Shown: positions 8,832 through 13,940, counted from the first letter of the stretch. The stretch is 26,298 nucleotides of DNA from an uncultured archaeon (GCA_964458565.1 CAYWJO010000046.1:1-26298); one strand, 5' to 3'. Notes: generated by a model from the letters alone, not told the origin. Numbers and translations: made by a program.

Positions 8832-9863
8832 CTAGAACATCCCAACACCAAAAGGGTATACAAGGAGGAGGAAAATCACGCCTCCAAATGCAATTATTGC
8901 TTGGAGTAGTAGAAGCATTTGTACATTCCTCTTCTCCGTTATTTTAAAGAAGTGTGGGAATACCCAGTACATTGTGTATGGACCTAAGACTTCTAATGTT
9001 CCATCTTCTTTTACCTGCGCAAACTTAGCGTATTGAATTCCTAGACGTTTTACTTGATATTTGTATATCAAATACATCAAGAAGTTAATTCCAAACGGAA
9101 GGTAAAGCACAATCGCAAGACGATCCATATTTCCTAGTATTAGAGCAGCTGCAATTGCCGCTCCCATGGGCAGGCGTCCAACATCACCAGGTAGTACTTT
9201 TGCAGGATATCTATTGAACAAAAAGAATGCTATAGTACTTCCTAGTAGCGCTGCTCCTACAGTAGCAGCATCAAGTTCATTTTGAGATAATCCGCCGTTT
9301 AAAATGGGTAATAATAGAATATAGATGATGATTGCGGAGGCATTTATACTCGTTAACCCCGCTTCTAGTCCATTCATACCACCGTACATATTGGTGGAAT
9401 CGATTATGAATGTCATCATTAATGGGATAATCACAAGTGGGTAGATTATCCCAAGATTTAGAGTACCAATAAATGGAATGTCCATTGTGGTGGTTCCGAC
9501 ATTCATTGCCATCATTGGTATTGACGCAACAATGGGTAGCAGTACCTTGGTTCGATTCTTAAAATCAAGCATATCATCGAGGAGTCCTATCATTCCAGCC
9601 ATCAGGACGGATACAAGTGCTGCTAGAAGGTTTGGATTAGCCACTCCTTCAAACTCGAATGTGCTTATTCCTATGACAAGGAGTAAGGATGCGACAATAG
9701 CAAAGAGTACAATATATCCTCCACCCTTGGGTACTTCAGGTCTATCCAGTTTGTGAACGTCAATACCGGTTCTCCCCCTCTCCCGCAACAGATTGATAGT
9801 ATTAGGAAGAGCGAAGATTACAATCAGAAACGAAACCAGTAAAGATATGAGTAGACCGTACAC
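8832..9863 (-). CDS. UDP-GlcNAc:dolichol-phosphate GlcNAc-1-P transferase (AglH/ALG7/DPAGT1 type, MraY/GT4 family)
   Basis: Polytopic membrane protein with DVHK...VP..GG, GLLDD, N..GG.NGLEAG and FNRYPAKVLPGD.G motifs. Confidence 0.88.
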   Translation of the reverse strand: MYGLLISLLVSFLIVIFALPNTINLLRERGRTGIDVHKLDRPEVPKGGGYIVLFAIVASLLLVIGISTFEFEGVANPNLLAALVSVLMAGMIGLLDDMLDFKNRTKVLLPIVASIPMMAMNVGTTTMDIPFIGTLNLGIIYPLVIIPLMMTFIIDSTNMYGGMNGLEAGLTSINASAIIIYILLLPILNGGLSQNELDAATVGAALLGSTIAFFLFNRYPAKVLPGDVGRLPMGAAIAAALILGNMDRLAIVLYLPFGINFLMYLIYKYQVKRLGIQYAKFAQVKEDGTLEVLGPYTMYWVFPHFFKITEKRNVQMLLLLQAIIAFGGVIFLLLVYPFGVGMF

Positions 9864-10051
9864 TTGTATCAGTTCCTTATTGTGAGAATTTTCAAACCTC
9901 TTTTACACTTTTCGGGGTAAGACCCTTTAGGTGCAACATTTGTACGTCCGAAACCAATAAAAAGCGAACTCGAAGTTGAACCGCAATGCTTGCAGCTCAA
10001 TTAGACATGATACTATAACTGTGAGCACTCGACAGACAATGGTGAAATGGA

Positions 10052-13012
10052 TTGAACCTGCTCCATAAACGACTAGTAACAATGATGCTCCTCACACTCT
10101 TTGTAACAGGTAGTGTGATCGCAATTGCACCAATCACTGAAAACTCTAATTCATCAATAGTGACCACAGATGTTTCATCAGACTATAAAATTGCTGAGTC
10201 ACTAATGGATATAGCAATCCCCTACATCGATGCCCATTATGGATCTGCAGATGGGATAATTGATCCAACTGAATATTCTGTCGAGTATACGGACTCAGTT
10301 ACTGGAATAACTGTACATATGGAGCATAACGGTACAGTTCTTTTCGTTGGTCTTGAAGCACCCACATCTGGTTGGATTGCCTTTGGATGGCAAAATTACA
10401 CATCCGGATTTAACACTGAAGGTCTCAACGGAAGCGACCTAATCTTCGGTTATGCTCCTGGTGAACCCCATGCAGATGTGCCCAGAGTAACTGGAAGTGA
10501 GCCGGTTACAGTACATTATATCCTGAAGTTCCAAAATGGAACAATCTTCCAAGAAGGGGATGTACCAGGTGATGATTCCACAACTCCAATTAGCGATGAA
10601 TTACTTCTTCCGGACTATAGGGATCAAATTTATGGTATGCGAGTTGGTGAGACTCGACATTTCATTATTCCTGCAGAACGTGGTTACAATAGAGTTGGAG
10701 AACTCCTATACGGGGAGGACCTAGAATATATCATTACGCTCAACAGAATTGCAGGCAACTATGATAATCCTACTGATTCTAGTGAGGTTGTTTATAGTGA
10801 CCAGCACGGATTGAGCACTTATCAGCATCTTCCAGATAGTAACCAAGAGCAAATTCTTGCAGCTAATGCTAGTGATGACGGTACACGAACTCAGCTGGAG
10901 TACTTCATTAAAATGATGAGTTCCGACAGTGATGACATCTCGCTAATCAATTCAACTGAATTACGTTATCCTCTCACACTGTTGTTTGGTGCGACTGAAG
11001 ACATTACTCAGCTACCTGTGCAGCACTCAGACTGGTCCAAGCCAATCATGATTAATTTTGTACCTAATGTGGGACCAACTGTAGAAGTTGTCAGTCACGA
11101 ACAAGATGAGGTTATTGAATGGGTTGCTAATTTCCAAGTTGAAGCGAGCGACAATACATATGTCCGAAGAGTTGAATGCAAAATCGATGATGAAGAGGAA
11201 TGGCAACCTTTGAAGTACGACTTTCTGTCCAACCTCTGGAAGATTACACTCGATGCATCACTTTATTCTGAGGATAATCATGTAGCGACGTTCCGTGCAA
11301 TTGATCCATCAAATACAACAGGCTATACAACCCTCGACTTCTTAATCGACCGTCCCTATGTGCCTTTCTTGGGTATGCGCGTTGAGGTTGCGCGAACAGT
11401 AAATACTGAGCTCTTTCAAACAACTTCGGTGGATGATACCTTTACTGTGCGGAATAATGGCTCAGCACCGATTGGCGCAATAGAACTTTACTTACCTCTT
11501 TCATATGCTAACAATTTCTTGTCCATCTACGGAAATGATGAAAACGGCAAATCACTCAAGATTGTCCGTCTTGATGATTCAGAGGATGTTATGCGATGGC
11601 GAGTCTATTTCTTCCAATCCGTTGGATATGATGAGGACTATCAATTTACAGTCGTTTCAAACTATCATTCATTGACGTCAATATTGGAATTTGATGAAAA
11701 CCTATATAGCTTGAAATTTCTGAGATTTCCAGTTGTTCCTTACGTCTTAACTAAAGCTTCTCTAACCATAAACACTCGTAGTGGCGACTCACTAGAAGGA
11801 GCTTCACCTGATACAACTGAAACCAACATTGCACCAATGACGATTAGTGTCTTCAGTATGACAATGACCTCCTATACACCCCTAATAGTTGGACACCGAA
11901 CAACAGAAATCATTATGGATTCATGGGGCTGGTTAAACTACAAGGAAACAATCACTCTTGATAATATCGGTCCTTCAAGGGAGAACATTCTACTCTTCAC
12001 TGTACCTGCATATTCCACAGGTATCAAGATTTATGATCAAGTTGGTGTATTAGCTGCATCACAACCCGGTGATTATAACTGGAATCAAACATTGAACCTA
12101 CAAATCAATTTAAGAACTGATAGATTCGGTGTGGATGGATTCATGCCAGATTATAGCTATACCTTCTTCATAACCTACAGTATCCAAACCGAAAAACATC
12201 AAGAAGCCATCAATACTGGTAACAAACTAGACATACCATTAGGAACAATGGGTGAACTACGAATTGTTGAACATCAGATTGATGTCATAATCCCTGATTC
12301 ATTGGGTATTGTGGATATCACCGATGGGTATCGAAGACTATATGGCGTCTTTGATTCAACTTACAGGTTCACTCAATATAATGGGACTAAATACAATCCT
12401 CTTCAAATCTCAGTGATTTATCAGGTTTCTATAGCTGTTCTTTCAAGACCTCTCTTGTTTGCATTAATAATAGGTCTAGTTGCTCTAGCTTACGTGGCTC
12501 TAAGGAAGGTCGAAGTAGCTGCTGAAACACTCAGCCCACGTATTGATGATGATTACGATGCTGCTGATTCTCGTCCTACCGGAGCGCCTCCTGAGATTGT
12601 TCGCAAATTCGCTACTCTGTACTCTCGAAAGACATCACTAAATATCGATCTTGAGAAACTAGAGGCCTCCCGTCGGAGAGGGAAAATTAAGCAGCGGGAA
12701 TTCATGTTACGTGATCGTGATATCAAATCCCAGATTGAAAATATCGATACAGAATTAGTGGGAGTACGTGGTGAACTACTTGGATACGGTTCAAGATATC
12801 GTGATATGATTGGCCAGCTTGAGCTAGAAAACGAAAAGATTGAAGGTGCAAAAGCTGGGCTTAGACAACTTCTCCGTAGGAAGAAGAAAGCCCAGATTAG
12901 CAGAGCCGCCTTTGAGAAAATCCGTCAGGATTACCTAAAGACAATCAAGAAGGCTACAACTGCAACCGACCGTATCTTACTCACCCTTCAGGAAGAGGCT
13001 GGGGACATATAA
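10052..13012 (+). CDS. Ribophorin I (OST1/RPN1)-like type I membrane protein with N-terminal DOMON, inserted FKBP-like and Ig-like domains
   Basis: Signal peptide; DOMON strands (GWIAFG, GSDLIFG, SD.H, D.DD); FKBP (VTVHY..GT.F..GMRVGETR..IIP....Y); Ig-like domain; RPN1-like motifs TTEIIMDSWGWLNYKETITL, VPAYSTGIKIYDQVG, IDVIIPD, VIYQ...SRPLL+TM; charged helical cytosolic tail. GGTGA at 10041-10045 precedes the TTG. Confidence 0.78.
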   Translation: MNLLHKRLVTMMLLTLFVTGSVIAIAPITENSNSSIVTTDVSSDYKIAESLMDIAIPYIDAHYGSADGIIDPTEYSVEYTDSVTGITVHMEHNGTVLFVGLEAPTSGWIAFGWQNYTSGFNTEGLNGSDLIFGYAPGEPHADVPRVTGSEPVTVHYILKFQNGTIFQEGDVPGDDSTTPISDELLLPDYRDQIYGMRVGETRHFIIPAERGYNRVGELLYGEDLEYIITLNRIAGNYDNPTDSSEVVYSDQHGLSTYQHLPDSNQEQILAANASDDGTRTQLEYFIKMMSSDSDDISLINSTELRYPLTLLFGATEDITQLPVQHSDWSKPIMINFVPNVGPTVEVVSHEQDEVIEWVANFQVEASDNTYVRRVECKIDDEEEWQPLKYDFLSNLWKITLDASLYSEDNHVATFRAIDPSNTTGYTTLDFLIDRPYVPFLGMRVEVARTVNTELFQTTSVDDTFTVRNNGSAPIGAIELYLPLSYANNFLSIYGNDENGKSLKIVRLDDSEDVMRWRVYFFQSVGYDEDYQFTVVSNYHSLTSILEFDENLYSLKFLRFPVVPYVLTKASLTINTRSGDSLEGASPDTTETNIAPMTISVFSMTMTSYTPLIVGHRTTEIIMDSWGWLNYKETITLDNIGPSRENILLFTVPAYSTGIKIYDQVGVLAASQPGDYNWNQTLNLQINLRTDRFGVDGFMPDYSYTFFITYSIQTEKHQEAINTGNKLDIPLGTMGELRIVEHQIDVIIPDSLGIVDITDGYRRLYGVFDSTYRFTQYNGTKYNPLQISVIYQVSIAVLSRPLLFALIIGLVALAYVALRKVEVAAETLSPRIDDDYDAADSRPTGAPPEIVRKFATLYSRKTSLNIDLEKLEASRRRGKIKQREFMLRDRDIKSQIENIDTELVGVRGELLGYGSRYRDMIGQLELENEKIEGAKAGLRQLLRRKKKAQISRAAFEKIRQDYLKTIKKATTATDRILLTLQEEAGDI

Positions 13013-13085: not shown

Positions 13086-13940
13086 ATGGACGATATCCAA
13101 GTATTTGAAAGAGATAATGTAGGCGCTGCTGATTTGATTCCTAAGGATTCAAAGGCGATGCAGATGTACCAATACCTGAAAAACAATCCAAAGATTCAAT
13201 CGTATCTTCGCACTGCTAATAGGATGGCTGTTTCCCGACTTGGGTATACTGATCATGGTCCAACGCATGCCGAAGTAGCTGCTTGGAATGCTCTCAGAGT
13301 TTTCGATATCCTTACTCAAACATTCCAACCGAATGTTGTTGCAGAAGAAATTGGAGATCTCGATGATGCCCGTTTGGTCGTTGCTGCAGCTACTTACATA
13401 CATGATATGGGTATGACAATACATAGAAATGAACACACTCAAGCCTCTGTTAATCTGGCTGCACCTATTTTAGAAAAGAAGTTAGAAGATATCTATCCAA
13501 ATCCCGGCCAAGCAACCGATATTCTCTCTATGATTCTTCATAGCATCTATGCACATGATGATGACACTCAATGTCTTACATTAGAAGCTGGAATGACCAA
13601 AATAGGTGATGGTTGTGACCTAACTAAAGGTCGAACTATAGTTCCTTATCACAAAGGGAAAGTAGACATTCATTCAGTGAGCGCTCTTGCTATTCGGAAT
13701 GTAATTCTTAGACCTGGAAAAGAAAAACCACTGCAAATCACAGTTGCTATGGACAACCCAGCTGGAGTATTTCAAGTCCAAGCAGTTTTGGAGAAGAAAA
13801 TATCAACATCTGGTCTTCGAGATCACGTCGAAATTATTGTGTTAGTGAATGGTGATGAGCTCGAACTCTCTCAAGTAAAACGTCTCTTTCGAGTTGAGAT
13901 CCACCCCTCTCCAGATACAATTCCAGTTAAGGAGAAATAA
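13086..13940 (+). CDS. HD-domain metal-dependent phosphohydrolase
   Basis: RLGYTDHG..H, HDMG..IHR..H, AHD, GDGCD...GR and DIHSVSA motifs. Confidence 0.88.
   Translation: MDDIQVFERDNVGAADLIPKDSKAMQMYQYLKNNPKIQSYLRTANRMAVSRLGYTDHGPTHAEVAAWNALRVFDILTQTFQPNVVAEEIGDLDDARLVVAAATYIHDMGMTIHRNEHTQASVNLAAPILEKKLEDIYPNPGQATDILSMILHSIYAHDDDTQCLTLEAGMTKIGDGCDLTKGRTIVPYHKGKVDIHSVSALAIRNVILRPGKEKPLQITVAMDNPAGVFQVQAVLEKKISTSGLRDHVEIIVLVNGDELELSQVKRLFRVEIHPSPDTIPVKEK

Follow-up and report, generated by a model that had tools for sequence, protein, structure and literature searches.

Why should an archaeal subunit of the N-glycosylation machinery carry a prolyl-isomerase-type domain nested inside a sandwich domain? 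The question is raised by one gene in a 26,298-nucleotide (nt) stretch of DNA from an uncultured archaeon (GCA_964458565.1 CAYWJO010000046.1:1-26298), called the window below and always meant at its full length. A single uninterrupted open reading frame (ORF), 10052-13012 on the plus strand, translates to 986 amino acids (aa). We show that this gene is the sole orthologue of OST1/ribophorin I, a helper subunit of oligosaccharyltransferase (OST) that docks ribosomes, in a Thorarchaeota-type Asgard genome. All of eukaryotic RPN1/Ost1 has its counterpart in the last 550 residues, ahead of which stands an order-specific extension of about 410 residues. The extension consists mainly of a DOMON-superfamily domain split by an FKBP domain, followed by an immunoglobulin (Ig)-like domain. 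The extension is probably, if only just, an OST1-borne folding and glycan-reading helper that would be covalently wired to the site of glycosylation.

The identity of the C-terminal part is clearest in its fold. Structures were compared by VIA-align (Z, root-mean-square deviation or rmsd) and Foldseek, and conservation was counted over 43 relatives. In a full-length model (predicted local distance difference test, pLDDT, 83), residues 438-979 superpose on residues 28-607 of human RPN1, the whole mature protein (8B6L chain O), at Z 31.5, and yeast Ost1 (6EZN chain A) follows at Z 30.1, whereas the best unrelated folds reach Z 13. Foldseek against solved OST subunits gave E 8.8e-28. By phmmer the OST1 part aligns with the full length of an Asgard protein (P0136) at E 5.5e-46, and that protein scores 62 bits on Pfam Ribophorin_I against a cut-off of 25. 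An exhaustive phmmer search returned many proteins of 560-620 aa that align end to end with residues 440-986, and those tested pass Pfam Ribophorin_I. The cytosolic bundle matches the crystal structure of the OST1 cytoplasmic domain from MK-D1 (8WHN) both in sequence (phmmer E 4.5e-7, family profile E 8e-9) and in fold (Z 17.7, rmsd 1.8 Å over 141 residues); in MK-D1 this domain pulls down ribosomes (PMC11417166). The model has the topology of OST1, namely two lumenal sandwiches, a single transmembrane (TM) helix and a cytosolic helical bundle of four helices within residues 847-983. An earlier note on this DNA, made from the sequence alone, had called the protein a ribophorin I homologue with a TM helix (residues 794-826 in the model) and a helical cytosolic tail, and both descriptions are borne out by these matches.

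Known OST1 proteins correspond to the C-terminal part of the chain only. Human RPN1 and yeast Ost1 chains of solved OST complexes (8B6L O, 6S7O E, 6S7T E, 6EZN A, 7OCI A) match in fold and topology over the entire mature protein at 12-17% identity, but the N-terminal extension has no eukaryotic counterpart. The OST1 of MK-D1, 'Ca. Prometheoarchaeum syntrophicum' (607 aa; PMC11417166), and the other Asgard OST1s of 560-620 aa are homologous over residues 440-986. In those proteins the core comes directly after the signal peptide, whereas about 410 extra residues come first in the thorarchaeal one. Searched with each half in turn, the source genome, a fragmented metagenome-assembled genome of 93 contigs and 93% complete, yielded neither another OST1 gene nor a further copy of the module. 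It also encodes one STT3/AglB (163 bits) and OST3/6-like genes.

Could the architecture be a product of mis-assembly, or of read-through of separate genes? We put the chance of this as negligible. The frame is open throughout, and over 9800-11972 the window is identical to a 2444-nt contig of a different sample. A further run has separate contigs that span 10350-10605, 10660-11010 and 11304-11899, and contigs from other salt-marsh samples bridge every domain junction without differences. The architecture also recurs in more than 120 protein clusters and in 74 other genomes. An assembly chimera, which the earlier note had named among the results that would overturn it, is refuted by this recurrence and by the bridging contigs, and the junctions are real.

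We next give the distribution, surveyed in 301 Asgard genomes, 76 of them in the family of the window and one in a sister family. The fused N-terminal module is present in 73 of the 76 and in the single sister genome, almost always in ORFs of 985-1034 aa. The fused form was not found in the other 224 genomes, which gave weak partial matches to the DOMON piece or the FKBP piece separately, and OST1 proteins elsewhere among Asgard archaea are of ordinary size (560-620 aa). The clusters with the whole architecture hold proteins of 930-1010 aa that their sources name Thorarchaeota; public annotation of the fused Thorarchaeota proteins is usually 'FKBP-type peptidyl-prolyl cis-trans isomerase' or 'hypothetical'. 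This distribution weakens the earlier suggestion of a proto-endoplasmic reticulum (ER) quality-control module, because restriction to one order argues for parallel invention and not for a proto-ER ancestor. The extension looks like a lineage-specific parallel to proteins that are separate in eukaryotes, FKBP11 and malectin, not like their ancestor.

The nesting of the two N-terminal domains can be read from several comparisons. By BLASTP, residues 52-112 (E 1e-12) and 242-327 (E 5e-4) of the 986-aa protein match P0200, a protein with two intact Pfam DOMON domains, and the gap between the two matching segments is 16 residues in P0200 versus 130 in the 986-aa protein. Profile-profile comparison of the DOMON halves with DOMON proteins (hhalign) gave 99.1%, and each half has matches among DOMON proteins from other Asgard archaea that themselves pass Pfam (74-108 bits on PF03351). 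A separate model of the module (residues 48-340, from a 41-sequence alignment; pLDDT 91.8, predicted template modelling score, pTM, 0.88) matches ethylbenzene dehydrogenase gamma (2IVF_C, Z 16.2), NxrC (7B04_C, Z 15.4), the DOMON domain of dopamine beta-hydroxylase (4ZEL_B, Z 14.0), CBM9 (1I82, Z 12.4) and the cytochrome domain of cellobiose dehydrogenase (1D7C, Z 12.4). These alignments span about 5-293 of the model but pair only 141-174 residues, skipping the FKBP domain. A DOMON cluster of the ESM Atlas aligned over 163 residues (TM-score 0.53, rmsd 1.8 Å). In the model the interruption lies between strand 129-134 (DLIFGY) and strand 247-253 (VVYSDQH), so the earlier placing of the split between GSDLIFGY and YSDQHG was correct. 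The beta-sandwich is common to the superfamily (PF03351; Z 12.4-16.2 for the five structures named), from which the thorarchaeal domain differs by its 100-residue FKBP interruption, by having no Pfam DOMON score and by having no invariant Met for the usual haem ligation.

The insert itself passes Pfam FKBP_C (PF00254) at residues 150-230 (nt 10499-10741), with 31.1 bits against a cut-off of 21.1 and 35.9 bits in the genome search; 40 of the 43 relatives also match. It superposes on human FKBP2 at Z 11.3 (rmsd 2.1 Å, 92 residues; Foldseek TM-score 0.76-0.77 normalised to FKBP2), and the FKBP part of the module model (model 94-190) gives Z 12.1 to a thermophilic SlyD. These matches assign the insert to the FKBP fold, a five-stranded sheet round a short helix. 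The FKBP domain proposed earlier is therefore upheld, and the contrary outcome named at the time, an insert not folded as FKBP, did not occur. NCBIfam offers BamJ at 15.7 bits against a cut-off of 100; this weak match reflects the FKBP domain only, and we rejected the assignment.

For the pocket, the genome's own canonical 109-aa FKBP (132 bits) served as the alignment reference, and residues were counted in the 43 relatives at FKBP12 positions Y26, F36, D37, F46, V55, I56, W59, Y82 and F99, which we take to be the active site. The Y26 position is Tyr (Y156), I56 is Leu (L186), W59 is Tyr (Y189) and Y82 is Tyr (Y212), each in 43 of 43; F99 is Tyr in 42 (Y226). The F36 position stays hydrophobic (L, I, F or V), and V55 is L or A. 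A fixed aromatic pocket of this kind argues for ligand binding. A deep-branching relative of 975 aa (P0124; L007:2854-5781), 35% identical and with the same architecture and synteny, has a more canonical insert, with F-D at FKBP12 positions 36-37, V-I at 55-56 and 50.8 bits on FKBP_C. The FKBP insert thus probably descends from an ordinary FKBP, and by this comparison its pocket may have diverged step by step within the main clade.

The conserved residues give some hint of what the DOMON domain might bind. No Met of the two halves is invariant in the 43 sequences, the best kept being M311 (36 of 43); haem binding is still a candidate role, if a less likely one. H62, H92, H259, H325, W108, W113, W328 and Tyr residues are conserved, together with many invariant Asp and Glu. 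From these residues the domain would seem to resemble sugar- or cation-binding DOMON/CBM9 domains more than a cytochrome. The mean frequency of the top residue per column is 0.81 in the cytosolic bundle, the most conserved part of the protein, 0.77 in the DOMON N-half, 0.67 in the FKBP domain, 0.66 in the DOMON C-half and 0.57-0.59 in the OST1 lumenal core. The DOMON N-half is the best conserved extracellular segment, with conservation of at least 90% in 42% of its columns. Since the DOMON N-half and the FKBP domain are conserved above the OST1 lumenal core, the added module appears to be constrained no less than the ancestral core.

Other features of the chain fit a location of the module outside the cell. 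The Ig-like domain superposes on a known Ig-like domain at Z 14.2 (rmsd 1.6 Å); its Pfam Big_7 match (residues 342-406, E 0.0024) falls just below the cut-off in the 986-aa protein, and 21 of the 43 relatives match, with a best E of 1.5e-10. NCBIfam gives no assignment for the OST1 and DOMON parts of the protein. The N-x-S/T sequons N93, N115, N126, N162, N469, N678 and N777, one of them within the FKBP domain, recur in 36-43 of the 43 sequences. Charge differs along the chain, the ectodomain being strongly acidic and the tail net basic (32 K+R versus 22 D+E). Conserved sequons, acidic ectodomain and basic tail together fit a type I topology in which the module is extracellular. The coordinates first proposed, given for the FKBP, Ig and lumenal domains, were right to within a few codons, and the proposed domain order, with the DOMON break, the TM helix and the tail, is confirmed.

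We also describe AglB/STT3 of the genome. It has 919 aa (G000:C25; L012:213-2972, minus strand). Its catalytic/soluble domain (L012:216-1421) matches eukaryotic STT3 at E 5e-24 to 7e-21, versus E 2e-7 and weaker for solved euryarchaeal AglB, which agrees with published descriptions of STT3 in Asgard archaea as eukaryote-like. The last ~170 residues (P0271) align with the DOMON alignment by hhalign at 77% (E 2e-5, 128 columns), and the nearest language-model neighbours by ESM Atlas features are CBM9_1 and EB_dh clusters (0.90-0.91), which we treat as a lead only. The tail is thus probably DOMON-like. In the window's family 72 of the 76 genomes have it, as does the sister genome, in AglB ORFs of 908-985 aa; outside these two families, the 301-genome survey gave weak matches to small proteins only. 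The catalytic and OST1 subunits of this order's OST both appear to have gained DOMON-type domains, and their co-distribution among kin genomes may reflect a single event. A recent duplication linking the AglB tail with the OST1 DOMON was considered and rejected (hhalign 12.9%, 39 columns): the two are not recent duplicates. A complex prediction for the DOMON-FKBP module with the AglB soluble C-terminal domain scored 0.25 against a mark of 0.32, was run without controls and counts neither way. Two short ORFs pass Pfam OST3_OST6, G000:C25:18171-18488 (L004, 148 aa), about 4 kb from AglB, and G000:C74:4236-4478 (L005, 143 aa); one matches the C-terminal and one the N-terminal part of the profile. 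They may be a split or two-gene OST3/6.

How, then, could the extension work as a helper of glycosylation? The cytosolic bundle and TM helix would hold the protein at a ribosome-SecYEG-AglB translocon, ribosome binding having been shown for the homologue. The Ig domain and OST1 sandwiches would form a stalk that places the DOMON-FKBP head extracellularly, beside emerging and newly glycosylated chains. There the aromatic pocket of the FKBP domain may bind proline-containing unfolded segments, as a holdase or as a weak isomerase. The DOMON domain, with its invariant acidic and aromatic residues, could offer a second binding surface, for which a glycan or lipid-linked oligosaccharide would be the likeliest ligand. 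As context for a link with glycosylation we count the neighbouring gene, which encodes an AglH/Alg7-like transferase of the GT4 family; it lies head-to-head with the OST1 gene here and also in the 35%-identical relative.

A number of observations weigh against this helper. The full-length model has a pTM of 0.45, so that the relative orientation of the domains is predicted without confidence. The 986-aa protein does not match Pfam Ribophorin_I (PF04597) at E up to 10, nor did a six-frame search of the genome with PF04597 give a match, the control genomes likewise giving none; 11 of the 43 close relatives match it directly, with a best E of 9.6e-10. Pfam DOMON (PF03351) is also not matched directly by the 986-aa protein, as might be expected for a split domain. 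In the pocket, the position of Asp37 (residue 167) is Gln in 34 and Glu in 9 of the 43 relatives, and catalysis may be weak or lost. Ser stands at the F46 position, and remodelling affects the 40s loop as well as the shortened 80s loop. With the pocket kept and Asp37 replaced, the insert may or may not have retained isomerisation, both being compatible with its sequence.

These changes in the pocket also count in favour of a rival reading, in which the thorarchaeal protein is an OST1 whose FKBP insert is a non-catalytic adaptor, its pocket permanently holding a partner protein or an intramolecular segment. On this view the module would serve to recruit or position another factor instead of acting on nascent chains. 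Asp37 is replaced in every one of the 43 relatives with the flanking loops remodelled, and the Y, L, Y, Y, Y signature of the pocket is fixed, as expected with one constant ligand. However, no partner is known or conserved adjoining the OST1 gene, the more canonical insert of P0124 suggests descent from an ordinary active FKBP, and many FKBPs with altered Asp37 retain some activity. A precedent exists in human FKBP11, a TM-anchored lumenal FKBP with a basic, ribosome-contacting cytosolic helix that docks on the ribosome-SEC61-OST-A translocon (PDB 9N9J, 9YGY; PMC12804085). CCDC134 buries its pocket there, and an isomerase role is disputed by the authors (PMC12804085); an FKBP at the translocon need not be a foldase, a further point against the helper. 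Overall we consider such an adaptor unlikely, though it is the main alternative.

A different objection comes from copies of the module that are not attached to OST1. Three stand-alone paralogues of 567-598 aa, P0129, P0131 (L009:5001-6761) and P0132, are 41-45% identical to the module of the window. They begin with a signal peptide, continue with DOMON with nested FKBP, Ig and an extra Ig-like domain, and end C-terminally in a plain TM anchor with a short tail behind it; P0132 has a degenerate FKBP motif. Second copies of the module also occur at G179:C23:20722-21888 and G299:C125:6300-7433. Such membrane-anchored DOMON-FKBP-Ig copies without OST1 indicate, from their sequences, that the module can work away from OST1, and this too counts against the helper. 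It raises the possibility that DOMON-FKBP-Ig is a general Thorarchaeota surface device that, for example, binds a ligand or haem, mediates adhesion or maintains the envelope, with OST1 merely one of its anchors and no link to glycosylation. One stand-alone copy lies among unrelated genes that include carotenoid synthesis, DOMONs elsewhere bind haem or sugars, and the fold matches include the haem-binding ethylbenzene dehydrogenase gamma and NxrC. However, the fused form is near-universal in the order and is the sole OST1, while the stand-alone copies are sporadic (2 of the 77 genomes of the order). Conservation of the module exceeds that of the OST1 lumenal core, the gene for the first enzyme of the glycan pathway is still paired head-to-head with the fusion, the AglB of the order has also gained a probable DOMON-like domain, and the DOMON halves have no invariant Met. 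We therefore give a surface device little credence.

If the glycosylation helper is extended to the whole complex, the order's OST might be a machine that glycosylates, reads and folds, with the FKBP domain an active foldase or holdase and the DOMON domains on OST1 and AglB binding the glycan or its lipid-linked donor. We regard this larger proposal as possible but rather doubtful.

Known systems offer partial parallels to such a helper. Structures that resemble the insert include an FKBP11 chain (Foldseek E 7.6e-5; VIA-align Z 10.4), but FKBP11 is a small protein of its own, recruited in a substrate-dependent manner, whereas the thorarchaeal FKBP belongs to the OST1 chain, where a DOMON domain encloses it. 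The lectin malectin is described as pairing with ribophorin I in animal and plant ER quality control (PMC9144812). A carbohydrate-binding-type beta-sandwich associates with ribophorin I there, and a DOMON/CBM9-like sandwich is attached to OST1 here; malectin, however, is a protein on its own and belongs to another fold family, and the thorarchaeal DOMON is only a putative sugar binder. The parallels with FKBP11 and malectin support plausibility only. SlyD and archaeal FKBPs with a chaperone domain inserted in the flap (3CGM, 3PRB, 1IX5), which are among the folds nearest to the insert (Z 12.1, 10.0 and 8.9), also combine an FKBP pocket with a second binding domain. Those proteins are cytosolic and the FKBP hosts the insert, whereas the thorarchaeal module faces outward, with the FKBP as insert and the beta-sandwich as host.

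Table 1. Features of the OST1 gene and its upstream region (positions counted from the first nucleotide of the window).
Feature	Position (nt)	Strand	Evidence
GT4 family (AglH/Alg7-like) polyprenyl-phosphate sugar-1-phosphate transferase	8832..9863	-	Pfam Glycos_transf_4, 100.1 bits
GGTGA Shine-Dalgarno-like motif, 6-nt spacer and TTG start	10041..10054	+	Direct reading; family consensus N-terminus matches
Signal peptide, residues 1-27 (basic K6 R7, then hydrophobic stretch)	10052..10132	+	Sequence; helix 2-19 in model; cleavage inferred
Linker, residues 28-52, poorly conserved, probably disordered	10133..10207	+	pLDDT <50 at 20-52; mean identity to relatives 0.21
DOMON-superfamily domain, N-half, residues 53-137	10208..10462	+	BLASTP E 1e-12 to P0200; hhalign 99.1%; fold Z 14-16
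FKBP-type domain in DOMON loop, residues 138-238	10463..10765	+	Pfam FKBP_C 31.1 bits; Z 11.3 to FKBP2
DOMON-superfamily domain, C-half, residues 239-338	10766..11065	+	BLASTP E 5e-4 to same P0200 DOMON; fold alignments reach model ~293 = residue 340
Ig-like domain, Big_7 type, residues 339-435	11066..11356	+	Big_7 E 0.0024; relatives' matches; fold Z 14.2
OST1/ribophorin I extracellular core, two beta-sandwiches, residues 436-610 and 611-793	11357..12430	+	Fold Z 30-31.5; Foldseek; phmmer
Single TM helix, residues 794-826	12431..12529	+	Model helix; aligns with RPN1/Ost1 TM helix
Cytosolic part: disordered linker 827-845, four-helix bundle 846-986, stop codon	12530..13012	+	Matches to 8WHN

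The gene is best read from the TTG at 10052. A GGTGA motif ends 6 nt upstream of it, and the N-terminus of the 43-sequence family consensus agrees with translation from this codon; one database gene call uses M11, the ATG at 10082. Base composition is flat along the whole window. The neighbouring genes are typical archaeal informational ones (NMD3, aIF1A, RIO1 kinase and a KH protein) together with 2-oxoacid:ferredoxin oxidoreductase, Trm112 and glycine cleavage P protein. The GT4 gene is divergent and upstream, separated from the OST1 gene by 188 bp (9864-10051), and NCBIfam gives only weak MraY-type matches for it. L006 and the 35%-identical L007 locus have the same divergent GT4/OST1 arrangement, and a divergent promoter region in the intergenic segment is likely shared by the two genes. 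On the 3' side, 13086-13940 (plus strand) encodes a protein of 284 aa that neither Pfam nor NCBIfam assigns to a family and in which H..HD-like motifs can be seen by eye. A gene of 288-289 aa with no recorded Pfam family occupies the equivalent position in L006, L007 and L008 (L007 and L008 being the 35%-identical loci). GT4, OST1 and the downstream gene appear to form a conserved syntenic trio, the downstream genes being matched by position and size only. Exact matches to the OST1 gene, at 11651-11938 and 12134-12500, come from four contigs of 151 nt in two salt-marsh metatranscriptome runs. They are a weak hint of transcription, as DNA carry-over is possible.

Asgard ribophorin I as such was already known (PMC10307638; PMC11417166). 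No paper describing the DOMON-FKBP-Ig-OST1 architecture was found in the literature searched, which left out most subscription journals, and the earlier statement that none was known agrees with this. FKBP and DOMON are absent from the supplementary files of PMC10307638 that were examined, and FKBP is absent from its main text. New as well is the probable DOMON-like tail on the order's AglB/STT3, which has the same distribution as the OST1 module.

OST and translocon subunits of Asgard archaea serve as evidence for the origin of the eukaryotic secretory pathway, and their architectures have hitherto been treated as eukaryote-like and uniform. Here, the OST1 of a whole order is 60% longer, with a foldase-type domain and a ligand-binding-type sandwich at the place where chains are secreted and glycosylated. 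Under the annotation FKBP-type isomerase or hypothetical, these proteins go unrecognised as the clade's OST1 orthologues. Should the module act on nascent chains, OST-coupled help with folding and reading of glycans would not be a eukaryotic novelty, and could evolve by simple domain accretion. The protein would also be a compact system for study, with a soluble ectodomain of about 380 residues and a clear, mutable pocket. If the order's OST does glycosylate, read and fold, covalently attached domains would do what the ER does with recruited FKBP11, malectin and related factors; glycoprotein quality control at the translocon would then have been invented independently, in a form open to experiment.

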